The notes beneath the pieces were generated by a model that worked only from the letters and a program-made list of their open reading frames with translations, had not been told where the DNA came from and did not search any database. A stretch of 64,000 nt of DNA from Eubacteriales bacterium (GTDB lineage: Bacteria > Bacillota > Clostridia > Oscillospirales > CAG-382). This document shows, one piece after another, positions 12,738 to 24,708 of the stretch (position 1 is its first letter; each line of letters opens with the position of its first letter). Position numbers and translations under genes: made by a program. The DNA lies in assembly GCA_045589515.1 (NCBI GenBank), contig JAZNPH010000050.1, positions 137,668 through 201,667 of the forward strand. The letters run 5' to 3'.

Positions 12738-15700
12738 TTATTCCACCGTGATCTCCACGTAGCAGATTTGGGATTCCCCAAGGTAATTGTTGTAGGTGTA
12801 AGCGAAGGTGTCCTTCCCGGTGTAGCCGGGTTCGGGGAGATAGCGGAAGGTGCCGTCGACGGAAAGCACCACGCTGCCGTGGGTGGGAGAGCCCGCCGGG
12901 GTGTACCGTGCAGGAACGTCACCCCTATGCAGGGTGCCGTCCAGAATGGTGTCCTTCTTCGCCGTGAAGGTGAGGGTTTCTACCGTCTCGGGATAGACCT
13001 CCAGGGTGCCTTTTGCAAACCGGTAGGTGGATTCGTACTGCATGCGGCAGAGAGGCAGGTCGCTTCTTGCCATCTGTGCGAAGTTGTCACGGTCGTCGTA
13101 GTAGATCCGCACGCCCTCGTCGTACCCGGTGACAACGCCGTAATACAGATACAGCATATAGTTCCGCACGAAATGGGGGTCGGAAAGGGCCTGGTAGGAA
13201 TGCTCGATCTCCACGGACATATGGAGCTGCTTGGAAACCTCCGCGGTGTGGGTGAACTGCCACAGAGGCACGTCCCCGGTGAACATCACGTTGGGCTGCA
13301 TACAAACCAGGTCAAAGCCCAATTCGTACCCGGTGTAGTAGCGGTTGGCCACGTAGTAGGGAATCCAAAGAAGCTGTGAGCCTCTGTCGTGGATCACGTC
13401 GGCGGTCTCTTTTACCAAATGGGTGTCGTCTCTGCCGTAGCCGATGGCCTCGATGCCCCAGTAGAACCCGCCGAGCTCCAGGTTTTTATACCCGCGGGAG
13501 GCGAATTCCTCCAGGCACAGATCGGTGAACCACTCCAGAACCTTTTTGCGGTCTTCAGCCTTGGTAAGATCCTCGGAAACACCGTCCCCGTCCACGTCGC
13601 CGAAATCCTTCACCGTGTCACGGATGGGAAACAGGGAGAGGTAGATCTGCACCTTGTAATCGGGCTTGTTCAAGGCATCCTTGACGGTGCCCACCACTTC
13701 CTCCACGTGATCCATGCCCGTGGGGCCGTTGAACACGCAGTCAAAGAGGTGATCCCAGTCCTTTTTGTAGCTGGCCTCCGCCACCTTGGACTTGGAGGGA
13801 AGATCCTCTCCGTTGGAAAGGATAAAGCCGTCCATAAAGGTATCGGTGATATTGCCTTCCTCATCCAGATACGCCACGTAGGGTAGGAGACGGTTCAGAT
13901 CCGTCATTTGGGTGTTGATAAAGGAGATATCGTGGGCCTTCACGGAGGTGTTTTCCGTGGTGGCGTATTGGAGGGTCTCCTCGTTGGTGTAGAAACGATT
14001 GGGGACGATACCGCTGTCCTGTACGAGGACGGCGTCATCCTTCACTTCCTTGGTGCCGAAGGCCTCCAGCTCGTCCAGCCAAACGGATTCGTTGTAGCCG
14101 CATTCCACACGGAAGCGGACGAAGCGGGCGGCGTAGGGGGTGTCAAGGGTGAAGTCTAGAGTGACGGGGGAGAAATTGTTTCCCAGCTTGGATTCATCCC
14201 ACTTGCAATCGGAAACGGGATACCACAGATTGCCGTCGTTGGAGAGCAGGATCGTCACGAACTTGGGACGGGAGATGCCCCAGCTCTTCTGATCCAGTGT
14301 GTGCACCTTGAAGGACTCCAGAGTGGAGATGGCTCCCAGATCAAAGAAGAAATCAATGGCGTTGCCGCCGCTGGCAAAGAACCAGTCGGGGGCGTAGCAG
14401 GTCTTGCTGGTGGCCCGTTTGCCGTCGGTGAGAATGGGGCTGTCCCCGGGCGTGTGCTCCTTCTTCACCGTGGCGGGGGCGTAGTAAGAGGTGGCGATCT
14501 GTTGGAGCTTGCCAAAGAGCAGGTTTTGGGTCTTGTCGTAATCTGCGTCGCTTGGGTTCCAGTATACTTCCTCGGTGACGGCGGGGAAGCGTACCTTCCC
14601 GTAAACGGAATCCTCGGGGATGTTTTCCAGCCCCGCGAAGACTTCAATTTCCTCCACCCAATAATTCCCCGCGCCGGGGGCAAAGTCCAAACGGATATAC
14701 CTTGCGGATATAAATTCCGGCAACAGCAGGGTGTAGGTGTAATTATCTCCCTGCAAAGGGGCGTACATTCTACCTAAGAAGGTGTAAGTCTTGCCGTCCG
14801 CGGAGCCATAGGCGTCGATGTAATCCGCATACCGCACGTCGATCCCCGAGCCTAGGGCGTGGACACGGAGGTGGTACAGATCGGAACGCTTCTGCCCCAG
14901 ATCCAGCTTGATAGAGGAAAGATCCTTTTCTTTGGCCCGGATCCCCACCCAAACGGACTCGCTGAACAGGCGGGTGGTACGTTCCCCGTTGGTGAGAAGC
15001 TTGTCGTTCTTGGGGGCACGTTCGTCGAAGGTGCAGTTTTCAAAGGTATAGGTAGCGCCTGCGGCTGCGTTTTCCGAAGCGGCGGGCAGGGCTTCTTTCC
15101 TGGTGGAAAGGGATTTCCACGCCATACGGTCGATGTTCTCTTTGCCGTATGCCAGAGCAACGGTGTCTGTTTCCTCCTTGGGCGGCACGTCGGCGTAAAC
15201 CTCCAATTCATCCAAGAAAATGAACATTCCTCCGATACCCACCCGCATACGGATGCGGATATAGCGGTAGTCCGCCACCTCCTCCAACTCAAGCCTTGCG
15301 GAGCTGACGGTGAGGTAGCCCGTCTCCTCAAAATTCACGGTGCCCAGTCGTTCAAACTCCTTGCCGTCGTTGGAGCCGTAAAAGCGAGCGCTTTGAGCCA
15401 GCTTCACCCCGTCCTTGGTCTGATCCAGACTGCGGGCAACGATGGCGGAGATCCGTTTGCCGTCCTCTCCCAGATCGATGGTGAAGATCACGTCGGAGGC
15501 AAAGCCCACCATGCGGGAGTCGATATAATGGGCCCCCACATCGGGAGTCTTCAGCCCGTCGGTGAGCTGTTGATCAAAAAAGTCGTCGTATCCGCCGCCG
15601 GAGGGTTCCACGTTATAGGTGTAGGGCTTCCCTACGCTGACCAGGGTGTAAAGCCGCTCCTCCTTGTTGGTATTTTCCTCGGAGGAGGCCTCTTCCATAG

Positions 15701-15809
15701 AGGAGTCCTCGGAAGAGGGCGTCATGGATTCCGTTACCCCGCTTTCGCAAGCGGAAAACAAAAGCGTCGCCGCAAGGAGCAACAGAAGCCATTTTTTCAT
15801 ATATTTCAT
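12738..15809 (-). CDS. Large lipoprotein with discoidin (F5/8 type C) repeats, a DUF4855-like domain and a C-terminal Ig-like domain
   Basis: 1023 aa with lipobox LLFSAC. Several ...YIRIRM/YIRLDF/FVRFRV... discoidin-type beta-sandwich signatures. The C-terminal GKDTFAYTY... region is cadherin/Ig-like. Confidence 0.75.
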   Translation of the reverse strand: MKYMKKWLLLLLAATLLFSACESGVTESMTPSSEDSSMEEASSEENTNKEERLYTLVSVGKPYTYNVEPSGGGYDDFFDQQLTDGLKTPDVGAHYIDSRMVGFASDVIFTIDLGEDGKRISAIVARSLDQTKDGVKLAQSARFYGSNDGKEFERLGTVNFEETGYLTVSSARLELEEVADYRYIRIRMRVGIGGMFIFLDELEVYADVPPKEETDTVALAYGKENIDRMAWKSLSTRKEALPAASENAAAGATYTFENCTFDERAPKNDKLLTNGERTTRLFSESVWVGIRAKEKDLSSIKLDLGQKRSDLYHLRVHALGSGIDVRYADYIDAYGSADGKTYTFLGRMYAPLQGDNYTYTLLLPEFISARYIRLDFAPGAGNYWVEEIEVFAGLENIPEDSVYGKVRFPAVTEEVYWNPSDADYDKTQNLLFGKLQQIATSYYAPATVKKEHTPGDSPILTDGKRATSKTCYAPDWFFASGGNAIDFFFDLGAISTLESFKVHTLDQKSWGISRPKFVTILLSNDGNLWYPVSDCKWDESKLGNNFSPVTLDFTLDTPYAARFVRFRVECGYNESVWLDELEAFGTKEVKDDAVLVQDSGIVPNRFYTNEETLQYATTENTSVKAHDISFINTQMTDLNRLLPYVAYLDEEGNITDTFMDGFILSNGEDLPSKSKVAEASYKKDWDHLFDCVFNGPTGMDHVEEVVGTVKDALNKPDYKVQIYLSLFPIRDTVKDFGDVDGDGVSEDLTKAEDRKKVLEWFTDLCLEEFASRGYKNLELGGFYWGIEAIGYGRDDTHLVKETADVIHDRGSQLLWIPYYVANRYYTGYELGFDLVCMQPNVMFTGDVPLWQFTHTAEVSKQLHMSVEIEHSYQALSDPHFVRNYMLYLYYGVVTGYDEGVRIYYDDRDNFAQMARSDLPLCRMQYESTYRFAKGTLEVYPETVETLTFTAKKDTILDGTLHRGDVPARYTPAGSPTHGSVVLSVDGTFRYLPEPGYTGKDTFAYTYNNYLGESQICYVEITVE

Positions 15810-15934
15810 AGAAATCCTGTCCTTTCGCAGTATTACCTATAAGTATAGCATATTCCCAAATCTTTGGCAATCGTCAAGAGGGTCAAAAATTCTCCTCCCG
15901 TTTTATGAAAAATCCCGAAACACCAAACCCATCG

Positions 15935-15963
15935 TTGCATTTTCTTGCAGAGTGTGTTATACT
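15935..15963 (+). promoter_or_regulatory. Sigma-A-type promoter of the nitroreductase-WYL-WYL operon
   Basis: TTGCAT-17 nt-TATACT with a TGn extended -10, 25 nt before the 15988 ATG. Confidence 0.55.
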
Positions 15964-15987
15964 GTGGAAAACACTTGGAGGTCATTT

Positions 15988-16518
15988 ATGGAATTCTTTG
16001 AAACCTTATACAGCCGCAAAACGGTGCGGAGCTACAACGGAACCCCCGTGACCGAGGCAGAGCTGCAAGAGATCTTAAAAGCGGGCTACGCCGCCCCCAT
16101 CGGCAGAAGACGGTACGACACGTTGCATCTCACGGTGATCACCGATGCCGCTTTCCTTGCGGAATGGGAAAAACAGGTGGGGATCGAAAGCGGAAAAGAG
16201 GACGCTCATCCTTTTTACGGTGCGCCCACGGTGGTGCTCATCTCTTCTGTGGTGGACGAGGATCCCTACGGCAACGTGAACTACTCCAACGCCGCCTCCA
16301 TCGCCCAGAACATGGCCCTTGCGGCCTGTGACCTGGGTGTGGGTGCCTGCCACATCTGGGGCGCCGTCCGCACCTTGAACAACTGTCCCGACCTGCTGTC
16401 CCGCTTGCCTATCCCTGCGGGAATGAAGCCCGTTTGCTCGGTAGCCTTGGGACACACCGACGAGACCTATACCCTGCGGGAGATCCCCGCGCGGATCGAG
16501 ACCGCCTATTTGAAGTAA
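15988..16518 (+). CDS. Nitroreductase family protein
   Basis: MEFFETLYSRKTVRSYNGTPVTEAELQEILKAGYAAP... is a classic nitroreductase N-terminus. ATG at 15988 follows GGAGG. The upstream part of the ORF-track call is antisense read-through. Confidence 0.85.
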   Translation: MEFFETLYSRKTVRSYNGTPVTEAELQEILKAGYAAPIGRRRYDTLHLTVITDAAFLAEWEKQVGIESGKEDAHPFYGAPTVVLISSVVDEDPYGNVNYSNAASIAQNMALAACDLGVGACHIWGAVRTLNNCPDLLSRLPIPAGMKPVCSVALGHTDETYTLREIPARIETAYLK

Positions 16519-16540
16519 CCTGTGAAAGGAGAAGCCGTAT

Positions 16541-17788
16541 ATGTCCGCATACCGTGAGTTGATCAAAAATTTCGGGCGGATCCGCGCCTATATGCGGGAG
16601 TTCTATGTTTACGGCTTCAAGCATAGAGAGCAGTACGCCGCAAAAAGCCCCCGCTCCTACGACGACGAGCGCCGCCGCGTGGAAAGCTGGCTGGGGGATC
16701 ACATGGGCTTCGTCCGCACTCCCGAGGGGAAGAACGTGTTCCTTTCCATCGATAGCCGCAGGATGGATCACAATCCCCTGTACAAGGCCTGGAAGGCAAA
16801 AAGCTTCACCGACGGGGATATTACTTTGCATTTTATTCTGCTGGACATCCTGCATACTCCCGAGACGGCACTTTCCGCAGGGGAGCTGCTGCGGATCATG
16901 GACAGTGAGTATCTTTCTTCCTTTCAAAAGCCCTTGGCATTGGACGAATCCACCCTGCGGAAGAAGCTGAAGGAGTACGTCTCCGAGGGGATCTTGACCA
17001 TGGAAAAACAGGGGAAGCGGGTGCTTTACCGCCGTGCGACAGATACCGTCGCCCTTCCGTCTCGGGACGTGTTGGATCTGTTTTCCGAGATCCTGCCCTG
17101 CGGCGTCATCGGTTCTTTTATGCTGGACCGCACAGAGGAGCGGGACAGCCCCTTCCGCTTCAAGCACCACTACATCACCGGCACTTTGGAAAGCGACCTG
17201 ATGGCCGTCTTGTTCGACGCCATGGGGAAGGGGGCTTCCGTGACGGTCACCAACGCTGCAAGGCGTACGGGGGAGCCTAAGCGGGTACGGACGATCCCCT
17301 TGCGGATTTACATCAGCGTGCAAAGCGGCAGGCAGTATCTGGTGGCTTACGTGCCGGAGCAAAACCGCATCCGCGCCTTCCGTTTGGATTATCTTTCCGC
17401 CGTAAAGCTTGAAGAACCCACGCCCCGCTTTGGGGAATTGCGGGCAAGGCTGGATGCCATGGAGCCTTTTCTTTGGGGCGTGAACTTGAAGGATGGGAGC
17501 GGAAAAACGGAGACAATCTCCTTCACCGTGAAGGCGGGGTACAACGAAGGGTACATCATCGACCGTCTGAGGCGGGAAAAACGCACGGGTCAGGTGGAGT
17601 GCCTGGAAAACGGGCTGTACCGCTTTTCCGCCCAAGTGCAGGACGCAAGAGAGCTGCTTCCCTGGATCCGTACCTTCTTATGCCGCATTGTGGCCTTTGA
17701 CTGCTCCAATACCGGCGTTAAGGAGCAGTTTTTGCGGGATCTGAAGGCTATGTATGCGATCTATGGCTTGGGAGGTGATTCGGGATGA
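16541..17788 (+). CDS. WYL domain-containing putative transcriptional regulator (wHTH-WYL-C-terminal extension)
   Basis: 415 aa. The WYL-like core is ...RTIPLRIYISVQSGRQYLVAYVPEQNRIRAFRLDYLSAV.... A winged-helix-like segment lies upstream (LSAGELLRIM...TLRKKLKEYVSEGIL). It starts 22 nt after the nitroreductase. Confidence 0.8.
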   Translation: MSAYRELIKNFGRIRAYMREFYVYGFKHREQYAAKSPRSYDDERRRVESWLGDHMGFVRTPEGKNVFLSIDSRRMDHNPLYKAWKAKSFTDGDITLHFILLDILHTPETALSAGELLRIMDSEYLSSFQKPLALDESTLRKKLKEYVSEGILTMEKQGKRVLYRRATDTVALPSRDVLDLFSEILPCGVIGSFMLDRTEERDSPFRFKHHYITGTLESDLMAVLFDAMGKGASVTVTNAARRTGEPKRVRTIPLRIYISVQSGRQYLVAYVPEQNRIRAFRLDYLSAVKLEEPTPRFGELRARLDAMEPFLWGVNLKDGSGKTETISFTVKAGYNEGYIIDRLRREKRTGQVECLENGLYRFSAQVQDARELLPWIRTFLCRIVAFDCSNTGVKEQFLRDLKAMYAIYGLGGDSG

Positions 17789-18696
17789 TCTTCCGTGAAT
17801 ATTTTTCTGCCTATTACCGCACCGTGGGGAAGCTTCTGGAGGCGTTGCAGACGGGAACTCCAACGGAGAAGGAGCTTCAAGCCATCGTGAGGAGGTACGC
17901 CTTTGAGGAAAGCACCGCTGCCATCCTTCCCGCCTTAAAGCAGGGGGAGTGGCAGTTGATGAGGGTGGATCTTACCACGCCCATCCGTCACACCCCCACC
18001 ATGCCCTTGACCTTGATGGAAAAGCGTTGGCTGAAGGCGGTCTCCTTGGATCCCCGCATTCGTCTGTTCGATTTTTCCGCGGAGGGGTTGGAGGACGTGG
18101 AGCCTTTGTTCACCCCGCGGGACTTTCGTGTGTTTGACCGCTACGGTGACGGCGATCCCTACGAGGACGAGACTTACCGCCGCCATTTCCGTACCGCTTT
18201 GGAGGCGGTGAAGACGGGAAAGCCGTTGTTCATCCGCATGAAGGGACGGAAGGGCAACGATGTTTGTGCCGTTTGTATGCCCTACAAGCTGGAATACTCC
18301 GAAAAGGACGATAAATTCCGCCTCCTCACCCGAGGCAACCGCTACGTCACCACCCTGAATCTGGCAAAGCTTATAGAATGCCGTTTCCACGAAGGTGTTT
18401 GGCAGAACCGTCGGAGCAGGGAACAGCGGGAGCAATACGCCGTTGTGCTGGAGATCCACGACCGCCGCAACGCCATGGAGCGGGTGATGTTCCATTTCGC
18501 CCACTTCAAAAAGCAGGCGGAGAAGATGGGGCGGGAAAAATACCGTCTCACCCTTTGGTGCGACAAGGAGGACGAGATGGAGCTTGCCATCCGTATCCTG
18601 TCCTTCGGCCCCATGGTAAAGGTTTTGGAGCCTGCACCCATGGTGGATCTCATCCGAAAAAAGTTAATGATGCAGAAAAACTGCGGACTCATTTAA
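17785..18696 (+). CDS. Second WYL domain-containing protein, paired with the upstream one
   Basis: 303 aa with an ATGA overlap to the upstream WYL gene. Core ...VCMPYKLEYSEKDDKFRLLTRGNRYVTTLNLAKLIEC..., plus a WCX-like C-terminus (ELAIRILSFGPMVKVLEP). Confidence 0.75.
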   Translation: MIFREYFSAYYRTVGKLLEALQTGTPTEKELQAIVRRYAFEESTAAILPALKQGEWQLMRVDLTTPIRHTPTMPLTLMEKRWLKAVSLDPRIRLFDFSAEGLEDVEPLFTPRDFRVFDRYGDGDPYEDETYRRHFRTALEAVKTGKPLFIRMKGRKGNDVCAVCMPYKLEYSEKDDKFRLLTRGNRYVTTLNLAKLIECRFHEGVWQNRRSREQREQYAVVLEIHDRRNAMERVMFHFAHFKKQAEKMGREKYRLTLWCDKEDEMELAIRILSFGPMVKVLEPAPMVDLIRKKLMMQKNCGLI

Positions 18697-18714
18697 GAGT
18701 TCGCAGCTTTTTTT
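18681..18714 (+). terminator. Intrinsic terminator overlapping the stop codon of the second WYL gene
   Basis: CTGCGGACTC/GAGTTCGCAG 10-bp stem (one G-U pair), a 6-nt loop containing the TAA stop, then CTTTTTTT. Confidence 0.75.
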
Positions 18715-18724
18715 CCGTGTTTTT

Positions 18725-18895
18725 ACAGGAAAACCATGGTAAACTGTGCTTGCAAGAGGGAAGACGGAGCGTTTCCTCACACGCCGGGGTGCGGCGGAGG
18801 CTTTCTCCGAGCGTATTCCCAAGTCCTCTCTCTTGTAAAAAGCAGGTTCGATTCCTGCGGTATGCACTCAAAAAATGCATACTCCTATGGTTTGG
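18725..18895 (+). ncRNA. Candidate structured RNA with a tRNA-like T-arm. It could be Y-RNA-like or tRNA-like, or a tRNA 3'-fragment relic.
   Basis: GCAGG-TTCGATT-CCTGC (18842-18858) is a canonical 5-bp T-stem with a 7-nt T-loop. GGTATGCA follows. A closing helix pairs AAACCATGG (18731-18739) with CC-T-ATGGTTT (18884-18893). There are several internal hairpins and no credible ORF. Confidence 0.3.
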
Positions 18896-19122
18896 GAAAG
18901 CGCTCTTCGGAGCAAAAACGGTACGCGAAAGCGTGCGAGAACGTTTTTATGCAAAACCAAGGTGCTCCCGCAAAGACGGCAAGCTTGGGGGACACGCCGC
19001 CTTTGCAGTGAAAGGATCGCCTTGCCGGGGAGAGGATACCGCATTCTTGCATAGAAAAGAGTGCTGAATCTTCCTGCCGCGGTCCTTTCACGGAAGCGCC
19101 CTTCAAGGAAGGAAGAAAAGTG
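18896..19122 (+). promoter_or_regulatory. Long structured leader of the hyp-SPFH-rtcB operon
   Basis: It has a UUCG-capped hairpin (18902-18913) and a GAAA-capped hairpin inside an AAAACG/CGTTTT helix (18915-18947). There is an 11-bp stem at 18970-19006. Long-range pairs are TATGCAA/TTGCATA (18948-54/19047-53) and GTGAAAGGATC/GGTCCTTTCAC (19008-18/19082-92). CTTCC can pair with the RBS GGAAG. Confidence 0.3.
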
Positions 19123-19719
19123 ATGTTTTGGAAAGACAGGAAAAAATTCAGAAAAAAGATCAGCGCCGCTTTTCCCGGCGTCTGCCAAAAGGACGTTTTG
19201 GCGGTGTTGAGACGTCTCCTTCCCGGGGGATTTGCCGAGATCGGTGAAGGCATGACTTGGCAGCTATCCGACGGCGAAACCGTCTCTCTCCCGCGCTGTG
19301 TGTGGCATTCGGATGTCCTGCTTCCGGGTTTTCCGCTGACGGAACGGCAAAAGCTGATCTACCACTGCATTTTCACACGAAGTTCAGACGGATACGCCCG
19401 ACAGCGGCACGCGGAAGCGCTTTTGGAACGGGAGACCCCGGAGTGGGTGTTGCCCTTTGTCGTCCAGCTGAGCCAGAGCTACGTGGCGGAGATCTTAGAG
19501 GCGATCTATAACGGGTTGCGGGAACGTGACAACCAAGACTATCGCGCTTTCTGCCGTTTGAACTACACCACCTTCCACAGGGGCTACGACAGAATGCTCA
19601 GCTATTGGGCGGAATACTACCGTTGGTACGATCCCCGTACCCAAAAATACTGCAAGACACGCTATCGTGATTACGTAGGCTGGAAGCTGTACGCCGAGGT
19701 CTTCGGCTGTAAAAAATAG
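19123..19719 (+). CDS. Hypothetical protein, first gene of the SPFH-RtcB operon
   Basis: 198 aa, Trp/Tyr/Arg-rich C-terminus. ATG at 19123 is 7-10 nt after AAGGAAGGAAG. No family recognised. Confidence 0.6.
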   Translation: MFWKDRKKFRKKISAAFPGVCQKDVLAVLRRLLPGGFAEIGEGMTWQLSDGETVSLPRCVWHSDVLLPGFPLTERQKLIYHCIFTRSSDGYARQRHAEALLERETPEWVLPFVVQLSQSYVAEILEAIYNGLRERDNQDYRAFCRLNYTTFHRGYDRMLSYWAEYYRWYDPRTQKYCKTRYRDYVGWKLYAEVFGCKK

Positions 19720-19740
19720 AAGGAAGAAAGGAATCTACTT

Positions 19741-20838
19741 ATGAAAACGATCATCCATGAAAATATGAAAGGTCTGCTGTTCAAGAACGGCAGATTCCAA
19801 AGGCTGCTGGGCGCGGGAAAATACTGCACGTGGGGCGGCAAGGTCATTGAGACGGTGGCGTTGGATGCCCCGCTGGAAAGTGCATATTGCTCTTTGGAGG
19901 CGCTGTTGGCCGATCCCGTGATCGCCGCAAAGACGGTCACCGTGGAGGTAGGGGAGCAACAGCTGGCTTTGCACTATGCGGACGGTCTGTTCTGTCACGC
20001 CCTCACCGCCGGTAAATACGCTTTCTGGAGGGAAGGCAAAAACCACGAGTTCCGTATGGTGGACGTTTCCCGTCCCGAGGCAGACCCCGATCTGCCCGCT
20101 CATCTGTACGCAAAGCTTCCAAAGACGCTTTACGCCAAGGTGGAGGTGGCTCCCCACCAAAAAGCCATGCTGTTTGTGGATTGCAAGCCTGTCAAGCTGT
20201 TGGATGCGGGCGTTTACCATTTCTGGAACAACGACGTGTCCGTGGAGGTCAAAAAGGCGGACGTTCGTCTGTGTTCCATGACGGTATCCGGTCAGGAGCT
20301 GCTCACCAAGGACAAGGTGACCTTGCGGATCACCTTCGTTTGCAGCTTCCGTGTCACGGATCCCGAAAAGGCTCTGACCTTGGTGGATGATTACGTCTCC
20401 CAACTGTACGTAGCGGTACAGCTGGCATTGCGGGAATACGTGGGCAGTTACCGTCTGGATGAGATTCTGGAAAACAAGGAGGAGATCTCCCGTTACGTGC
20501 TGGAAAAGCTTGCCGCAAAGCGAGAAGAGCTGTTTGTGGAGATCACCGAGGCGGGTGTGAAGGATATCATTCTCCCCGGCGAGATCCGGGAGATCATGAA
20601 CACCGTGTTGGCGGCGGAGAAACGGGCGCAAGCCAACGTGATCACCCGCCGTGAGGAGGTGGCCTCTACCCGTTCTCTGCTGAACACCGCCAAATTGATG
20701 GAGGAGAATCCCATCCTTTACAGATTGAAGGAACTGGAATATCTGGAGAGGATCTGCGAAAACGTAGGCAATATCCAACTAAGCGGCGGCGATATGCTTA
20801 CCCAACTGACCGCACTGTTCCGAAGCGGTGCTACCTAA
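19741..20838 (+). CDS. SPFH/band-7 (slipin-like) protein with a ~180-aa N-terminal extension
   Basis: The C-terminal half ...LTKDKVTLRITFVCSFRVTDPEKA...VKDIILPGEIREIMNTVLAAEKRAQANVI... is an SPFH domain. 21-nt gap from the upstream gene. Confidence 0.8.
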   Translation: MKTIIHENMKGLLFKNGRFQRLLGAGKYCTWGGKVIETVALDAPLESAYCSLEALLADPVIAAKTVTVEVGEQQLALHYADGLFCHALTAGKYAFWREGKNHEFRMVDVSRPEADPDLPAHLYAKLPKTLYAKVEVAPHQKAMLFVDCKPVKLLDAGVYHFWNNDVSVEVKKADVRLCSMTVSGQELLTKDKVTLRITFVCSFRVTDPEKALTLVDDYVSQLYVAVQLALREYVGSYRLDEILENKEEISRYVLEKLAAKREELFVEITEAGVKDIILPGEIREIMNTVLAAEKRAQANVITRREEVASTRSLLNTAKLMEENPILYRLKELEYLERICENVGNIQLSGGDMLTQLTALFRSGAT

Positions 20839-20850
20839 AGGAGAATTGAT

Positions 20851-22059
20851 ATGATCGAAATAAAAGGAAAACATAACACCGCCGTTTGTTACACCGACAC
20901 CATGGAGGAGGGAGCAATGGCACAGATCAAGACCATGTGCGATCTGGAGGCATTCTCAGGCTCCCGCATCCGCATCATGCCCGATGTGCACGAGGGGATG
21001 GGATGTACCATCGGCACCACCATGACCGTGACGGATAAAGTGGTTCCCGCCATGGTGGGGGTGGACATCGGATGCGGAATGTATACCATGGCATTGGGAA
21101 AGGTAGATTTGGACCTCGCTTTGCTGGACGAGGCGGCCCACGGCATTCCTTGCGGCTTTTCCGTATGGGAGGGCAGGCAGGAGCGGTTTGACCTGACGGA
21201 GCTGAAGTGCTACCGCTATCTGAAGGACTCCAAGCGCTTGGAGCGAAGCCTTGGCACTCTGGGCGGGGGCAATCACTTCATCGAGGCGGACGTGGATGAT
21301 GAGGGAAATCATTATTTGGTGATCCACTCCGGGAGCCGTAATTTGGGCACCCAGGTGGCCAATTACTACCAGGACCTTGCCGCAGACCTGAATGCGGGGA
21401 AGGAGGACCTCTTCCGCGAAAGAGAGGAGCTGATCCGTATCTACAAGGAGCAGGGGAGGCGCACGGAAATTCAAAAGGCCTTGAAGGAGCTGGAAAAGGC
21501 CTACGAGGCCAAATCTCCCACCCTGCCCAGAGAGCTTTGCTACCTCTACGGAGACTTTATGGAGAGCTACCTCCACGACATCCGCATCTGTCAGCAGTTT
21601 GCAGGGCGGAATCGGGAGAAGATGGGGGAGATCCTCCTTGCCAAGCTGGGGCTTGAGGCGGCAGACGCCTTCCACACGGTGCACAACTACATCGATGTGG
21701 AGGCGGGCATCCTCCGCAAGGGTGCAGTTTCCGCGGCGGCGGGAGAGAAATTGTTGATCCCCATCAATATGCGGGACGGAAGCCTGATTTGCATCGGCAA
21801 AGGCAACCCCGATTGGAACTTTTCCGCACCCCACGGGGCGGGGCGGTTGATGTCCCGTGCCAAGGCCTTTGAGAAGCTGACCATGGAGGAGTACCGTAAG
21901 GAGATGGCGGGGATCTACACCACCTGCGTCAACGAGAACACCTTAGACGAGTCTCCCATGGCCTACAAAAGCATGGAGGAGATCTTACGCCATATCGGGG
22001 ATACCGCGGAGGTGGTCGCTCATATCAAGCCCATCTACAATTTCAAAGCGCCGGATTGA
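20851..22059 (+). CDS. rtcB: RtcB-family RNA 3'-phosphate ligase
   Basis: Motifs PDVHEGMGCTIG, VGVDIGCGM, GGGNHFIE, HSGSRNLG and APHGAGR. 402 aa. 12-nt gap after the SPFH gene, followed by a terminator. Confidence 0.9.
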   Translation: MIEIKGKHNTAVCYTDTMEEGAMAQIKTMCDLEAFSGSRIRIMPDVHEGMGCTIGTTMTVTDKVVPAMVGVDIGCGMYTMALGKVDLDLALLDEAAHGIPCGFSVWEGRQERFDLTELKCYRYLKDSKRLERSLGTLGGGNHFIEADVDDEGNHYLVIHSGSRNLGTQVANYYQDLAADLNAGKEDLFREREELIRIYKEQGRRTEIQKALKELEKAYEAKSPTLPRELCYLYGDFMESYLHDIRICQQFAGRNREKMGEILLAKLGLEAADAFHTVHNYIDVEAGILRKGAVSAAAGEKLLIPINMRDGSLICIGKGNPDWNFSAPHGAGRLMSRAKAFEKLTMEEYRKEMAGIYTTCVNENTLDESPMAYKSMEEILRHIGDTAEVVAHIKPIYNFKAPD

Positions 22060-22065
22060 CCGAGA

Positions 22066-22100
22066 CGGGAGATTTTTTAGGAAGTCTCCCGCTCTTTTTG
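22066..22100 (+). terminator. Intrinsic terminator after rtcB
   Basis: CGGGAGA/TCTCCCG stem followed by CTCTTTTT. Confidence 0.6.
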
Positions 22101-22122
22101 TTCTCCGAGGCGAGAAAATCAG

Positions 22123-22151
22123 TTGCAATTCCTATAAAACTGTGGTATAAT
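22123..22151 (+). promoter_or_regulatory. Sigma-A-type promoter of mtaD-ahcY
   Basis: TTGCAA-17 nt-TATAAT with a TGn extended -10. Confidence 0.6.
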
Positions 22152-22189
22152 ATTCCAAAGAGTATAATAGGAGGAGTGTTGAAACAGAT

Positions 22190-23449
22190 ATGGAAAGCAT
22201 TCTCATCAAAAATACGAAAGCCCTATCCGGTGGGCAGGTGGTGGAGGCGGAGATCGCTATCGAAAACGGCGTGATCCTTTCCATGACGGGTACCCCCGAA
22301 GGCTTTACGGCAGATAAAGTGATCGACGGGGAAGGGAAGCTTTGTATTCCCGGCCTGGTCAATGCCCACACCCACGTGTATATGACCCTGTTCCGCAACT
22401 ACGCCGACGACGTGGCCTTTACCGAGTGGCTCTTCGGCCGTGTTCTCCCCAAGGAGGACGCCATGTCCGTGGAGGATGCCTATTGGGGCACTCTGCTGGG
22501 CTGTATCGAAATGGTAAAAAGCGGCACCACCACCTTCTGCGATATGTACCCCATTGCGGGGATGTCCGCAGAGGCCGCCCGCAAGGCTGGTATGCGCGCC
22601 GTGGTGAGCAGAGGGCTGACAGGCTCCGAGGGCGGAGAACGGCGGATCGCCGAGGCCTTGGGAGAATGGGAGACCTGGAAGCATGATCCCATGGTGACCC
22701 ATATGCTGGCACCCCACGCCATCTATACCTGCGATACTCCCTTCCTGGAGCGGGTGATGCAGGTCTCCGACGAGACGGGAATGCTGATCAACACCCACCT
22801 TTCAGAGTCCGAAAAGGAGATCGCCGATTGTATTGAAGCACACGGCTGCTCTCCTGTGGAATACCTGGCAAAGCTGGGGATGTTCGACCGCAAAACCTTG
22901 GCCGCTCATTGCGTACACCTTTCCGAGCTTGACATCATGCTGTTGGCGGAAAAAGGGGTCTCTGTTGCCCACAACCCCAAGAGCAATCTGAAGCTTGCCA
23001 ACGGTATCGCTCCCGTAAAACAGCTTTTGGACGCAGGAGTGAACGTGTGCCTGGGTACCGACGGCGCAGGCTCCAACAACACCTTGAATATGTTCTCCGA
23101 AATGAACTTCGCCTGCCTCCTGCCCAAGGGTGTGAACAAGCAGGGAGATGTGGTCAGCGCCAACACCGTTTTGCAGATGGCCACGGCAAACGGCGCCAAG
23201 GCACTGTCTCTGGACAAGCTGGGCGACCTGCAGGCAGGCTGGAAGGCTGATATTGCCATCCTGAACCTTGACTATCCCTGGATGCATCCCATGCATAACG
23301 TGGCAAACGCCCTGTGTTATTCCGCCACCGGCACCGAGGTGGAAACGGTGATCATCGGCGGCGAAGTGGTAATGGAAAACCGCAAGATGACCAAGATCGA
23401 CGAAGAAGAGGTCTACGCAAATATCGCGCGGATCGCAAAGGATTGGTAA
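22190..23449 (+). CDS. mtaD: Amidohydrolase, 5'-methylthioadenosine/S-adenosylhomocysteine deaminase-like
   Basis: ...CIPGLVNAHTHVYMTLFRNYADDV...WL... is a metal-binding HxH motif in the MtaD context. It is adjacent to ahcY. Confidence 0.75.
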   Translation: MESILIKNTKALSGGQVVEAEIAIENGVILSMTGTPEGFTADKVIDGEGKLCIPGLVNAHTHVYMTLFRNYADDVAFTEWLFGRVLPKEDAMSVEDAYWGTLLGCIEMVKSGTTTFCDMYPIAGMSAEAARKAGMRAVVSRGLTGSEGGERRIAEALGEWETWKHDPMVTHMLAPHAIYTCDTPFLERVMQVSDETGMLINTHLSESEKEIADCIEAHGCSPVEYLAKLGMFDRKTLAAHCVHLSELDIMLLAEKGVSVAHNPKSNLKLANGIAPVKQLLDAGVNVCLGTDGAGSNNTLNMFSEMNFACLLPKGVNKQGDVVSANTVLQMATANGAKALSLDKLGDLQAGWKADIAILNLDYPWMHPMHNVANALCYSATGTEVETVIIGGEVVMENRKMTKIDEEEVYANIARIAKDW

Positions 23450-23454
23450 TTTTT

Positions 23455-24708
23455 ATGTTGAACTATGAAATCAAAGACCCCTCCCTGTGGGAAAGCGGGG
23501 AACGAAAGATCCTCTGGGTCAAGGAGCATATGCCCCTGTTGAGAGGGCTGGAGGAGGAAATGCTGGCTACCAAGCCCCTGGCAGGCTTGCGTGTTGCCCT
23601 TTCCGTCCATTTGGAAGCAAAGACCGCCTACCTCTGCCGCGTGCTTGCCGCAGGGGGCGCAGAAATGTATATCACCGGCAGTAACCCCTTGTCCACCCAG
23701 GACGACGTTGCCGCCGCTTTGGTGAAGGACGGCCTCCACGTCTACGCGGAGCACGGATGCTCCATGGAGACCTACCACCGCCATATCTCCTATGTGATCC
23801 AGGCCGCACCCCAGATCATCATCGACGACGGCGGTGACCTGGTACACTTGATCCACACGGAATACCGCCACCTCCTCCCCGGCGTCATCGGCGGCTGCGA
23901 GGAGACCACCACGGGCATCCTCCGCCTCCACGCCATGGAGCGTGAGGGAGAATTGAAGTTCCCCATGGTAATGGTAAACGATGCGGATTGCAAGCATCTC
24001 TTTGATAATCGTTACGGCACGGGACAGTCCGTTTGGGACGGCATCAACCGTACCACCAATCTGATCGTGGCAGGGCAGACCGTTGTGGTAGCCGGCTACG
24101 GCTGGTGCGGCAAGGGCGTTGCCATGCGCGCCAAGGGCTTGGGCGCTTCCGTCATCGTCACGGAGGTAGATCCCATCAAGGCCATGGAGGCTGTGATGGA
24201 TGGCTTTGCTGTGATGCCCATGAAGGAAGCCTGCCCCAAGGGCGACTTCTTCGTCACCGTGACGGGAGATATGGAGATCATCACCACCGAGCATTTCCCC
24301 CTGTTAAAGGACGGCGCCATTCTTTCCAACGCCGGCCATTTCGACGTGGAGGTGGATATGCAGGCTCTGCGTGCCTACGCGGTTCGCTCCTGGGAGGCAA
24401 GACAGAATATCACCGGCTACGAGCTGCCCGATGGCAAGAAGGTCTACGTTCTGGCAGAGGGCCGCTTGGTAAACCTGGGGGCAGGGGACGGCCACCCCGC
24501 AGAGATCATGGATATGTCCTTCGCCGTCCAGGCCATGAGCGTGCTGTACCTTATCCGTAACAAGGACGTGCCCAAAACCTCCAACGTCATCGCTGTTCCC
24601 AGAGAAGTGGATCTGGAGATCGCAAGACGGAAACTTTCCTCCTGGGGCATCGCCATTGACGAGCTGACGGAAAAGCAAAAAAGATATCTGGATTCCTGGG
24701 GCTCGTAA
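23455..24708 (+). CDS. ahcY: Adenosylhomocysteinase
   Basis: MLNYEIKDPSLWESGERKILWVKEHMPLL...CEETTTG...GYGWCGKG... are hallmark AhcY motifs. ATG at 23455; the upstream part of the ORF-track call overlaps the mtaD 3' end. Confidence 0.9.
   Translation: MLNYEIKDPSLWESGERKILWVKEHMPLLRGLEEEMLATKPLAGLRVALSVHLEAKTAYLCRVLAAGGAEMYITGSNPLSTQDDVAAALVKDGLHVYAEHGCSMETYHRHISYVIQAAPQIIIDDGGDLVHLIHTEYRHLLPGVIGGCEETTTGILRLHAMEREGELKFPMVMVNDADCKHLFDNRYGTGQSVWDGINRTTNLIVAGQTVVVAGYGWCGKGVAMRAKGLGASVIVTEVDPIKAMEAVMDGFAVMPMKEACPKGDFFVTVTGDMEIITTEHFPLLKDGAILSNAGHFDVEVDMQALRAYAVRSWEARQNITGYELPDGKKVYVLAEGRLVNLGAGDGHPAEIMDMSFAVQAMSVLYLIRNKDVPKTSNVIAVPREVDLEIARRKLSSWGIAIDELTEKQKRYLDSWGS

Follow-up and report, generated by a model that had tools for sequence, protein, structure and literature searches.

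Overall, after analyzing the 64,000-nt stretch of DNA from a Eubacteriales bacterium (hereafter, the window), we propose that one of its regions is a module of two units by which gut Clostridia respond to RNA damage: a pair of WYL proteins would gate an operon of a structured RNA, an SPFH protein and RtcB. We assign this reading a probability of roughly 60%. Across many species, the linkage of the WYL pair, a promoter motif and RtcB is strong, and the linkage of the RNA to the SPFH gene is obligate.

Genes of the locus

The features of the locus are listed in Table 1. The gene set, the intergenic gaps and the two terminators all lie where the first-pass annotation had put them. The nitroreductase gene and WYL1 are 22 nt apart, an ATGA overlap joins the end of WYL1 to the start of WYL2, and gaps of 21 and 12 nt separate hyp from SPFH and SPFH from RtcB. 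RtcB had also been called catalytically complete, and its metal and guanylylation motifs (MPDVHEG, DIGCG, GGGNHFIE, HSGSRNLG and PHGAGR) indeed align with those in the P. horikoshii RtcB structures.

Table 1. Features of the locus in window coordinates
Feature	Position	Strand	Details
Nitroreductase gene	15988..16518	+	Pfam Nitroreductase E 4e-12
WYL1 (415 aa, predicted regulator)	16541..17788	+	Pfam WYL E 5e-7
WYL2 (303 aa, putative WYL1 partner)	17785..18696	+	PADLOC WYL; Pfam WCX (below cut-off)
Terminator-like hairpin and T-run, end of WYL genes	18681..18716	+	hairpin 18681-18706, 10-bp stem, 6 G-C pairs, then CTTTTTTT
Invariant 22-nt motif AGTTCGCAGCTTTTTTTCCGTG	18698..18719	+	about -54 to -33 of the operon promoter
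Extended -10 promoter element TGgTAAACT	18737..18745	+	TAnnnT invariant in 29 homologues
Structured ncRNA, ~350 nt	~18752..19106	+	tRNA-like 5' domain and conserved 3' domain
5' hairpin, helices 2 and 3	18786..18818	+	helix 2 95.7% paired
T-arm GCAGG-TTCGATT-CCTGC	18842..18858	+	5-bp stem, 7-nt loop UUCGAUU; 94.5% paired
Acceptor-stem-like closed hairpin (helix 6)	18859..18883	+	directly 3' of T-arm; 94.7% paired
D-loop-like element CC-uAUGGUUU-GG	18884..18897	+	conserved in alignment A5; family consensus CC-AGYGGUUU-GG
3' domain, long irregular hairpin	19005..19097	+	invariant internal loops CCTTGCC...GGATACCG and CTNAA...CNGCCGC
199-aa ORF (hyp), GTG start	19120..19719	+	no family match
SPFH/Band-7 (slipin) gene	19741..20838	+	Pfam Band_7 E 3e-25, residues 138-306
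RtcB 3'-phosphate/5'-OH RNA ligase, 402 aa	20851..22059	+	Pfam RtcB E 1e-57
Terminator-like hairpin and T-run, end of operon	22066..22101	+	hairpin 22066-22091, 11-bp stem, then CTCTTTTTGT

In WYL1, a WYL domain occupies residues 220-289, preceded by a weak winged-helix signal (about residues 100-185) and followed by a WCX-like C-terminal region. The PADLOC matches of WYL1 are to WYL (E 2e-11) and a Csa3-like HTH (E 1e-5), and a weak SmtB-like match covers residues 126-183. WYL2 matches the PADLOC WYL model over residues 125-294 (E 5.6e-7), and its Pfam WCX score is 22.2 bits here (cut-off 23.9) and 25.3 bits in the homologue from locus L005; a search for an HTH in WYL2 detected none. Of the two WYL-domain genes originally annotated, the first is thereby upheld and the second carries the weaker assignment. 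WYL1 neighbors WYL2 in most loci, at 50-60% identity, and WYL2 directly follows WYL1 in every case. Pairwise comparison of the two revealed no significant similarity, and their profiles align weakly and colinearly (E 0.027). Adjacency and the ATGA overlap are the sole pointers to a candidate PafBC-like heterodimer of WYL1 and WYL2.

The AF2 model of the SPFH protein (pLDDT 83.8) comprises three 5-stranded beta modules, the SPFH domain and a long C-terminal helix. Foldseek matched it to stomatin, HflK/C and prohibitin (E down to 1.6e-14), as well as to major vault protein over 417-436 columns. No TM segment was found in the protein, which lacks a membrane anchor and is predicted to be soluble. 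Its N-terminal extension, previously estimated at about 180 aa, measures about 130 aa and is made up of two additional beta modules that precede the Pfam Band_7 region. The protein encoded by hyp was correctly described as unknown, matching nothing in Pfam, NCBIfam or PADLOC, and it has 199 rather than 198 residues. Its AF2 model is poor (pLDDT 54.7), its family is small (12 clusters), and its gene comes first in 6 of 36 loci anchored on the RNA; it is an optional accessory gene adjoining SPFH.

A conserved tRNA-like RNA in the spacer

The spacer between WYL2 and hyp (18697-19119, 423 nt) holds the 22-nt motif, the extended -10 promoter and a real, conserved tRNA-like ncRNA. The + strand of the spacer folds with z = -4.4 relative to shuffles, none of 100 of which was equally good. 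In an alignment of 29 diverged homologues (A5), compensatory changes occur in 46 of 62 pairs, and 91.5% of base-pair cells pair, compared with 37-48% in slid controls; none of 500 shuffles matched these pairing and covariation values. The T-arm matches that of tmRNA and tRNA and shows swaps from G-C to A-U and from C-G to U-A, helix 6 has compensatory changes in 6 of 7 pairs, and helices 9-12 of the 3' domain are 88-94% paired, with many such changes. The homologues carrying these substitutions sit upstream of diverged operons. In keeping with the 3' domain, covariance model R1 scores 76 bits (E 3.6e-19) at its sole match in the window. Additionally, the 3' strand of the helix 2-3 hairpin (18811-18817) can instead pair with 18859-18865, giving an acceptor stem of the tRNA type, which is 90.9% paired compared with 26-53% in slid controls. 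The likeness of the element after helix 6 to a D-arm is our own, tentative reading. No conserved reading frame was found in the RNA, whose inter-block distances spread evenly modulo 3. No Rfam 15 family matched the RNA, and the window yielded no tRNA call from either ARAGORN or the Rfam tRNA model.

An SPFH gene lies downstream of the RNA in all 36 RNA-anchored loci, including loci that have neither WYL nor RtcB. A pattern for the RNA alone gave 90 matches in metagenomes; viral contigs yielded no match. Bases 18758-19106 are missing, with clean edges, from two close relatives, L001 (in which SPFH is present) and L002, a difference of 349 nt; therefore, the RNA is dispensable.

The promoter motif and its linkage to the WYL pair and RtcB

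The 22-nt motif is identical in 12 of 12 full-length sequences of alignment A4 and has one copy in the window, with a chance expectation of 0. Its 20-nt core, on which species were scored, occurs in at least 120 species versus about 1 expected, the count being a lower bound. The 3' arm and T-run of the hairpin at the end of the WYL genes belong to the motif. However, loci L131 and L135 keep the motif with no complementary arm ahead of it, so termination does not account for its conservation. The motif and the -10 element are separated by a constant 20 nt, the TAnnnT bases (A5 columns 21, 22 and 26) are invariant in the 29 homologues, a canonical -35 element is absent from the operon promoter, and transcription is predicted to start near 18752. 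We take the motif as the candidate operator of the WYL pair. The spacer of about 420 bp had been proposed as the region bound by the pair; its structure is confirmed, but most of it is conserved ncRNA that travels with SPFH, and the likely operator is confined to the 5' edge. Three loci without adjacent WYL genes (L044, L065 and L135) retain the motif, exactly or with 2 changes, so recognition by another factor, or a role in the RNA or the promoter itself, is possible.

Synteny was assessed in loci found via the 199-aa protein, in 80 loci found via the promoter motif alone and in the RNA-anchored loci. In the first set, WYL1-WYL2 precedes hyp/SPFH/RtcB even at about 40-60% protein identity. 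In the motif-found set, WYL2 ends 4-40 nt upstream in 65 of 71 loci, RtcB is downstream in 23 of 30, and some known cargo is present in 54 of 57. The first-pass annotation had suggested that a WYL pair rather than CARF-RtcR accompanies RtcB in Firmicutes, and synteny across these loci agrees. Because it holds in both locus sets, the WYL pair is not confined to the nitroreductase gene, which adjoins it in close relatives only (L001-L003, L007, L008 and L197) and is a lineage-specific neighbor outside the module. Minimal WYL-WYL-motif-RtcB loci are also present, and their leaders span only about 90-500 nt. The cargo is modular, being RtcB alone, SPFH-RtcB, or DUF2828-RtcB with tRNA-like genes; parallel operons with the same motif encode DUF2828, RlaP and RtcB, and their leaders contain Rfam tRNA matches above the gathering score. 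We take DUF2828 to be TROVE-like. The scaffold is thus exchanged as a module: none, SPFH with the spacer-type RNA, or DUF2828 with tRNA-like genes.

Putative mechanism and alternatives

From these associations, on which the mechanism as a whole rests, we infer how the WYL pair regulates the operon, what it senses and what the RNA does. The translationally coupled WYL1-WYL2 unit would encode a ligand-sensing regulator of the second unit. This regulator would gate transcription by binding the 22-nt motif, which extends over the -35 region of an extended -10 promoter of the sigma-70 type. By analogy with RtcR, its ligand may be damaged tRNA or RNA ends, and the sign could be either activation or repression. 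The second unit would be a single transcript whose first ~350 nt form a structured ncRNA rather than a passive leader. Processing would turn this RNA into a stable form that binds its cognate partner, the soluble SPFH protein of the gene immediately downstream. End joining would be catalyzed by RtcB, and the 199-aa protein would be an optional accessory.

Alternatively, though we consider it unlikely, the RNA could be a cis-acting leader, such as a riboswitch-like or tRNA-mimic sensor, and no trans partner of SPFH. A ligand, a tRNA-binding protein or backbone cleavage and repair would then switch the fold between two hairpins and the acceptor stem, altering mRNA translation or stability. The RNA does follow the promoter and precede the first start codon, ends 25-60 nt short of the ribosome-binding site and is followed by the same gene family every time, and conservation extends to both of its mutually exclusive pairings (helix 2 and the acceptor hairpin at 95.7% and 94.7%, the alternative stem at 90.9%). 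However, variation in the alternative stem is mostly one-sided, so its conservation may reflect sequence similarity between the two hairpins. Neither a terminator/anti-terminator nor a helix sequestering the ribosome-binding site was found, some operons dispense with the RNA (L001) or have RtcB immediately behind the promoter, and the nearest analogues, yrlA and yrlB of rsr-yrlBA-rtcBA, give rise to trans-acting RNAs by processing (PMC4201824).

RtcB ligates broken tRNAs, which accords with a less probable idea still, namely that the RNA is a decoy for tRNA-targeting nucleases, for example anticodon nucleases of phages, plasmids or competitors. Cleavage of the decoy would shield tRNAs or yield a 2',3'-cyclic-phosphate fragment for the WYL pair, and RtcB would reseal it. 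About half of the family has an anticodon-arm-like hairpin just before the T-arm, with a 7-nt loop CU-NNN-AA in which NNN is mostly GUC but also GUU or UUU. tRNA fragments activate RtcR, and YrlA has been suggested to act as a competitive inhibitor (PMC7790460). However, the RNA of the window lacks this hairpin, and another subgroup carries the CUGUCAA loop on a different hairpin, so the loop may bind protein rather than mimic an anticodon. Moreover, the locus encodes no nuclease, defence-system models matched only its WYL proteins, and viral contigs hold no copies. Finally, a mobile insertion (MITE-like or IS-derived) or an unannotated small ORF could account for the ~349-nt segment, with the WYL pair regulating something else, such as itself or the nitroreductase gene. 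The clean presence or absence between close relatives and the long stop-free frames in the G+C-rich spacer would fit, yet this reading is contradicted and highly improbable: the segment is single-copy, with constant position and orientation, in the window and every locus; comparison of the two junction sequences made neither terminal repeats nor a target duplication evident; plasmids and viral contigs gave no match; base pairs covary strongly and the distances between conserved blocks are evenly distributed modulo 3; and the nitroreductase gene is unlinked beyond close relatives.

Our preferred reading of an RNA-SPFH-RtcB operon gated by the WYL pair has a partial precedent. As quoted in bioRxiv 10.1101/312249, Burroughs and Aravind predicted RtcB with Band-7 and a tRNA-like ncRNA, 'b7a-tRNA', by comparative genomics in 2016, and an SPFH oligomer with the tRNA-like RNA was proposed to serve as an RtcB scaffold or cofactor, like Ro60 with Y RNA in rsr-yrlBA-rtcBA. 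[quoted passage not shown] Because the RNA-SPFH loci match that prediction, as far as it is quoted there, SPFH does not count as a newly recognized partner of Rtc, contrary to the first-pass annotation. What is likely new is the association of the WYL pair and the invariant promoter motif with such RtcB operons in well over 100 gut Firmicute species.

Gene layout and protein families of the operon

The observation made in the first-pass annotation is real and richer than first described. Its gene layout, gaps, ATGA overlap and two terminators were confirmed by an ORF listing together with Pfam, NCBIfam and PADLOC scans, on which the following table is based.

Features of the locus, in window positions
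Feature	Position	Strand	Basis or remark
Nitroreductase gene	15988-16518	+	Pfam Nitroreductase
WYL1 gene	16541-17788	+	Pfam WYL, E 5e-7; starts 22 nt past the nitroreductase gene
WYL2 gene	17785-18696	+	PADLOC WYL, E 5.6e-7; Pfam WCX slightly below cut-off; ATGA overlap with WYL1
Terminator-like hairpin after the WYL genes	18681-18706	+	
Gap (spacer)	18697-19119		423 nt
RNA, first hairpin	18786-18818	+	
RNA, variable region	after first hairpin, before T-arm	+	
RNA, T-arm	18842-18858	+	canonical, GCAGG-UUCGAUU-CCUGC
RNA, 7-bp closed hairpin	18859-18883	+	directly 3′ of T-arm
RNA, D-loop-like element	18884-18897	+	CC-(A/U)(G/A)YGGUUU-GG
RNA, two small hairpins	3′ of D-loop-like element	+	
RNA, long irregular hairpin	~19005-19097	+	invariant internal loops CCUUGCC...GGAUACCG / CUNAA...CNGCCGC
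199-aa ORF	19120-19719	+	no family match
SPFH gene	19741-20838	+	Band_7, E 3e-25; after 21-nt gap
RtcB gene	20851-22059	+	Pfam RtcB, E 1e-57; after 12-nt gap
Second terminator	22066-22091	+	

RtcB had been noted to carry all catalytic motifs, and its Cys/His metal ligands and HGAGR guanylylation motif do align to those of P. horikoshii RtcB. The SPFH protein belongs to a family with more than 7,500 matches and the database name "slipin family protein". Its AF2 model (pLDDT 83.8) contains three five-stranded beta modules, at residues 1-40, 65-108 and 131-174, and the rest comprises the SPFH domain and a helix of ~60 residues. The N-terminal extension described earlier is present and is predicted to form these beta modules, but its length is ~130 aa instead of the ~180 aa first given. 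No membrane anchor was found in the protein, the highest 19-residue Kyte-Doolittle mean being 1.24. Foldseek searches with the model returned stomatin, HflK/C and prohibitin, with E values down to 1.6e-14, as well as major vault protein over 417-436 columns. As in the eukaryotic vault protein, beta-repeat modules at the N-terminus are followed in the predicted structure by an SPFH "shoulder" and a long helix; a small structured RNA accompanies the SPFH protein, as vault RNA does the vault. However, the predicted model has only three repeats, reaches a TM score of only ~0.42-0.44 and gives no sign of a cage. We regard this modeled resemblance as a lead, not as membership.

For the 199-aa protein, structure prediction was less successful; the AF2 model was poor (pLDDT 54.7) and therefore unsuitable for a fold search. 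This protein forms a tiny family, always beside SPFH, with no match in Pfam, NCBIfam or PADLOC.

Of the two genes annotated as WYL regulators, WYL1 was identified by Pfam WYL (30.1 bits against a cut-off of 21.8), whereas WYL2 is less firmly supported, its WYL domain being matched by PADLOC only. A putative HTH region of WYL1 (approximately residues 75-185) gave sub-threshold PaaX, Csa3 and SmtB-like matches, and no HTH was detected in WYL2. The two overlapping genes are constantly adjacent; their products share no pairwise sequence similarity, and hhalign gave a weak match over the WYL-WCX region (E 0.027, probability 1.9%). Searches of the PDB with single sequences and profiles returned only noise-level matches for either protein. 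As with the WYL regulators PafBC, DriD, BrxR and CapW, putative HTH-WYL-WCX-type genes stand beside a nucleic-acid-damage or defence operon, and as with pafB and pafC, two predicted WYL genes are adjacent. However, sequence similarity to these regulators is very low, with no PDB relative by sequence, and, unlike known WYL regulators, WYL2 has no detectable HTH and no paralogy is recognisable between the pair.

Other genes flank the locus. Upstream of the nitroreductase gene lies a divergent gene (12738-15809, - strand) whose 1023-aa product has a signal sequence of the lipoprotein type, and a promoter-like site lies beside this gene at 15870-15842 (- strand). Past the operon terminator, an amidohydrolase and an apparent adenosylhomocysteinase are encoded at 22190-24708 (+ strand), with a promoter-like site at 22123-22151. 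The best NCBIfam matches of the amidohydrolase were below cut-off (chlorohydrolase/TRZ-ATZ hydrolases, and deaminases such as 5′-deoxyadenosine and MTA/SAH deaminase). Its synteny is kept only among close relatives, and it does not belong to the module.

A conserved structured RNA in the spacer

The spacer encodes an RNA of conserved structure. Its + strand folds better than shuffled sequences (z = -4.4). In L001, the locus of a close relative with 87-96% protein identity, WYL2 and the 199-aa gene are only 74 nt apart. This locus and L002, a further homologous locus, lack window bases 18758-19106, which a third, L003, has. Where identity of the 199-aa protein is down to ~40%, a diverged copy still occupies the same position, with obvious compensatory changes. 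A DNA pattern from the 3′ part of the RNA, used as a search query, gave 11 genome matches (10 genuine), 90 metagenome matches and no viral matches; one match, L035, was rejected as chance, sitting inside a spoIIIAE-like coding sequence. In an alignment of 29 representatives with less than 93% identity (A5), RNAalifold found 62 pairs, and compensatory changes occur in 46. Standard pairs fill 91.5% of the pair cells of A5, a share that drops to 37-48% once partners are shifted by 1-3 columns, and the covariation score is 0.473 compared with 0.08-0.14; the observed pairing and covariation values were reached by 0 of 500 shuffles. A covariance model built on the 3′ domain gave exactly one match in the window, at 19005-19097 (76 bits).

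In Rfam 15, no family matched positions 15500-22500 (E <= 1) or the spacer alone (E <= 10); the spacer, like fuller homologues, gave only T-arm fragments of tmRNA models. YrlA and YrlB models, presumably among those searched in Rfam, gave no match. Against tRNA-clan models, the T-arm alone of the window RNA matches. ARAGORN called neither a tRNA nor a tmRNA in the window, and it called one homologue (L009) tRNA-Leu-like.

The D-stem of the RNA has 2 bp. Another pairing, incompatible with the two-hairpin fold, is conserved too: bases 18811-18817, the 3′ strand of the first hairpin, could pair with the strand directly 3′ of the T-arm (18859-18865) to give an acceptor stem with true tRNA topology. 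The alternative stem is 90.9% paired, compared with 26-53% when slid, and its variation is mostly one-sided; the Rfam tmRNA model detects the alternative acceptor together with the T-arm in one homologue, below threshold. Some family members carry a second T-arm-like hairpin 5′ of the T-arm. The 7-nt loop CUGUCAA sits on differing hairpins by subgroup (A5 columns 221-233; L131:5716-5740): in L131, one of the homologous loci, it caps a hairpin 3′ of the T-arm, elsewhere the anticodon-arm-like hairpin 5′ of it, and it is missing from the window RNA.

Other readings of this segment were weighed. A protein-coding reading was ruled out even though stop-free frames are long in the G+C-rich spacer DNA, as the distances between conserved blocks are evenly spread modulo 3 (10/9/8) and no frame is preserved. 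The clean absence of the segment from L001 and L002 led to a first guess of a mobile insertion, which we rejected because diverged, covarying copies occupy the same place in distant genomes and because each locus has one copy, with no plasmid or viral matches. Two rivals concern what the RNA does. It might act in cis, switching between its two alternative folds, or it might serve as a decoy that draws anticodon nucleases. Roughly half of the family members, the window RNA not among them, have a hairpin resembling an anticodon arm a few nucleotides 5′ of the T-arm, and its 7-nt loop is CU-NNN-AA (mostly GUC). Our preferred reading is of an RNA that is released and works with SPFH. The RNA is tied to SPFH, which lies 3′ of it in 36 of 36 RNA-found loci, and in three of the homologous loci (L044, L065 and L057) RNA and SPFH occur alone in unrelated surroundings.

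The promoter motif and its gene neighbourhoods

A TGGTAAAAT-like sequence lies 5′ of the RNA in every homologue, with invariant TAnnnT positions (A5 columns 21, 22 and 26); in the window it reads TGnTAAACT. Exactly 20 nt upstream of this element stands the 22-mer AGTTCGCAGCTTTTTTTCCGTG, which is unchanged in all full-length sequences of A4, another alignment of spacer homologues, and occurs once in the window. The 22-mer falls at about -54 to -33, the usual place of the -35 element, and no canonical -35 is present at the operon promoter. The promoter is sigma-70-like with an extended -10 and without a -35 element. PafBC-dependent promoters likewise lack a -35 element and carry a conserved upstream motif.

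In the window, the first half of the 22-mer also provides the terminator behind WYL2 with its 3′ arm and T-run. A terminator role was rejected as the reason for its conservation because the motif is kept in loci without a preceding complementary arm. At L131:5140-5503, ~360 nt separate WYL2 from the motif and contain at least six short repeats of the ATATCGA / TCGATAT type; the window has none such.

A search with the 20-nt core alone matched at least 120 species, compared with about one expected by chance, and the matches listed include Oscillospiraceae, Lachnospiraceae, Ruminococcus and a Coprobacillus. At L139, L210 and L217 (Paenibacillus cisolokensis), the exact 20-nt motif occurs with no homologue of a module protein nearby; these matches could be chance, other regulon members or an unrelated use of the sequence. 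Neighbourhoods were counted at 80 loci among the matches listed: WYL2 ends 4-40 nt 5′ of the motif in 65 of 71, RtcB lies within 6 kb 3′ of it in 23 of 30, and some known cargo follows in 54 of 57. Where at least 3.5 kb was available downstream, the cargo among the matches listed was SPFH-RtcB (n=12), SPFH-RtcB-RlaP (n=1), RtcB alone behind a leader of only ~90-500 nt (n=5), DUF2828 and RtcB in either order with or without RlaP (n=11), or 199-aa protein-SPFH-(DUF4275)-RtcB (n=3). Anaerofilum hominis BX8 (L146), a cultivable carrier, shows the smallest arrangement, WYL-WYL-motif-RtcB.

Pfam confirmed DUF2828 (PF11443) and RlaP (PF10127). Seven loci (L140, L141, L162, L164, L173, L192 and L208) place a ~490-aa DUF2828 protein with RtcB, and often RlaP, under the WYL-WYL-motif promoter. 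We take DUF2828 to be TROVE/Ro-like, and the protein presumably has a vWA-type DGSGSM motif. In the leader between motif and DUF2828, the Rfam tRNA model scored above its gathering threshold in three loci, L208, L141 and L162, the scores among them being 57.7, 38.3 and 35 bits. Two T-box leader matches, scoring 82 and 42 bits where the gathering score in Rfam is 93, were seen at L140:1605-2038 (- strand), ~2.5-2.9 kb from the motif, on the opposite strand and outside the WYL-RtcB genes; they probably belong to an unrelated aminoacyl-tRNA-related gene.

Among loci found via the 199-aa protein, the order 199-aa protein-(SPFH)-RtcB follows WYL1-WYL2 in ~17, with identities of ~58% for WYL1, ~50% for WYL2 and ~71% for RtcB. 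SPFH is optional in this set, the nitroreductase is linked in the five closest relatives only, and two more optional operon genes come and go. These genes (L013:6592-7149, L025:6580-7071 and similar) encode a DUF4275 protein of ~140 aa (Pfam E 1.6e-14) and an unnamed Cys-rich protein of ~165 aa with CxxC...WYNGWYHVCG motifs, directly 5′ of RtcB; neither is in the window. L001 is without the 349-nt RNA and keeps SPFH (L001:5926-6001); in L002 the RNA and the SPFH gene are both missing, and RtcB directly follows the 199-aa gene (L002:5926-6622). At L136:571-9438, RtcB, a 181-aa protein and a GIY-YIG/integrase-like protein are followed, after a 1-kb gap, by the 199-aa protein, SPFH, two metallophosphatases and an ADP-ribosylglycohydrolase, which suggests end-healing or de-ADP-ribosylation partners.

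The RNA search yielded 53 distinct loci. WYL2 lies 5′ of the RNA in 13/19 and RtcB 3′ of it in 13/19, and the 199-aa gene is the first gene in 6/36; the RlaP nucleotidyltransferase is present in L063, L116 and L135. The WYL pair and motif are tied to RtcB operons and make up one module, which accompanies RtcB; the RNA and SPFH make up another, and the two modules are often, not always, combined. By association, these counts support well the earlier proposal that a WYL pair takes the place of RtcR beside RtcB.

Known RNA-repair systems and a putative mechanism

In 2016, Burroughs and Aravind reportedly proposed a role as scaffolding cofactors for SPFH/Band-7 and Rot/TROVE modules, together with their cognate ncRNAs. 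The window has an intact RtcB, an adjacent Band-7/SPFH protein and an adjacent conserved ncRNA predicted to be tRNA-like from its T-arm, acceptor-like stem, D-like loop, covariation and complete SPFH linkage. As in the Band-7/b7a-tRNA/RtcB system, to the extent of its secondary description, RlaP is an occasional partner and the scaffold can be swapped for the presumably TROVE/Ro-like DUF2828 module. A preprint states that the b7a-tRNA prediction (Burroughs & Aravind, Nucleic Acids Res 2016) had no experimental validation as of 2018 and that b7a-tRNA and YrlA sometimes exchange protein partners (bioRxiv 10.1101/312249). Therefore, given the 2016 prediction as quoted there, the RNA, SPFH and RtcB probably belong to a predicted, unvalidated class. 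The suggestion that SPFH and the 199-aa protein are undescribed Rtc partners was partly right, and wrong for SPFH. Unlike the b7a-tRNA system as excerpted in that source, the RNA here is ~350 nt long with an extra conserved 3′ domain, the window RNA is not called a tRNA by ARAGORN or Rfam, and upstream of the operon stand two WYL genes and an invariant motif at the promoter; each of these differences may be partly known already. No functional WYL-RtcB link was found in the literature searched, and the 2016 paper may mention WYL neighbours; in papers naming both, WYL appeared, where checked, only in the citation of a CARF/WYL paper. As far as can be told, the WYL pair with its invariant motif, the RNA 3′ domain and the alternative folds are undescribed.

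The rsr-yrlBA-rtcBA operon of Salmonella combines Ro60, Y RNAs and RtcB/RtcA under the CARF-sigma54 activator RtcR. By prediction, the two operons share a scaffold protein of a ring- or cage-forming type (here SPFH), a dedicated ligand-sensing regulator upstream (here the WYL pair) and an operon-encoded ncRNA with a tRNA-like domain. In bacterial YrlA, this domain runs from the T-arm through a closed acceptor-like hairpin to a D element (PMC4201824), and the window RNA follows that description with the order (V)-T-acceptor hairpin-D. In contrast to the Salmonella operon, the window operon has no Ro60/TROVE, RtcA, RtcR/CARF or sigma54 promoter, and uses an SPFH scaffold, a WYL-pair regulator and a sigma-70-type extended -10. 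Between promoter and terminator, only the 199-aa protein, SPFH and RtcB are encoded; the upstream genes encode WYL proteins, and none of the seven genes scanned around the window operon encodes a TROVE or DUF2828 protein, unlike the sister operons with DUF2828 under the same motif.

We provide a putative mechanism. The WYL pair would bind the motif and, on sensing a nucleic-acid signal, control the promoter; the analogues are RtcR, whose CARF domain senses tRNA fragments (PMC7790460), and other WYL regulators. The operon transcript may release the RNA from its 5′ end, and this RNA, with an SPFH oligomer, could serve as a scaffold or cofactor for RtcB. In its fullest form, the reading is that a soluble SPFH protein and a ~350-nt bipartite tRNA-like RNA form a vault- or cage-like RNP that gives broken tRNAs or other RNAs to RtcB, with the RNA toggling between a two-hairpin and a cloverleaf-type fold, and that an undescribed WYL pair senses RNA-damage products and acts through an invariant 22-nt element common to SPFH-, DUF2828- (presumably TROVE-like) and bare RtcB operons across Firmicutes. 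We regard this full reading as unlikely, with a probability of roughly 0.2.

The finding bears on the substrates of bacterial RtcB, on its switch outside Proteobacteria and on its frequent partners, a scaffold protein and a tRNA-like RNA. An unvalidated prediction is thereby resolved into exact parts that experiments can address: a clearly delimited candidate operator of 22 nt, a regulator made of two genes, an RNA whose secondary structure is well supported and which has two alternative folds, and natural RNA-minus and SPFH-minus variants (L001 and L002), which resemble knock-outs in near-identical backgrounds. If the WYL pair is the sensor, it would be a Firmicute counterpart of CARF-RtcR, and the role of WYL proteins would extend from the control of DNA damage responses and phage defence to RNA repair.
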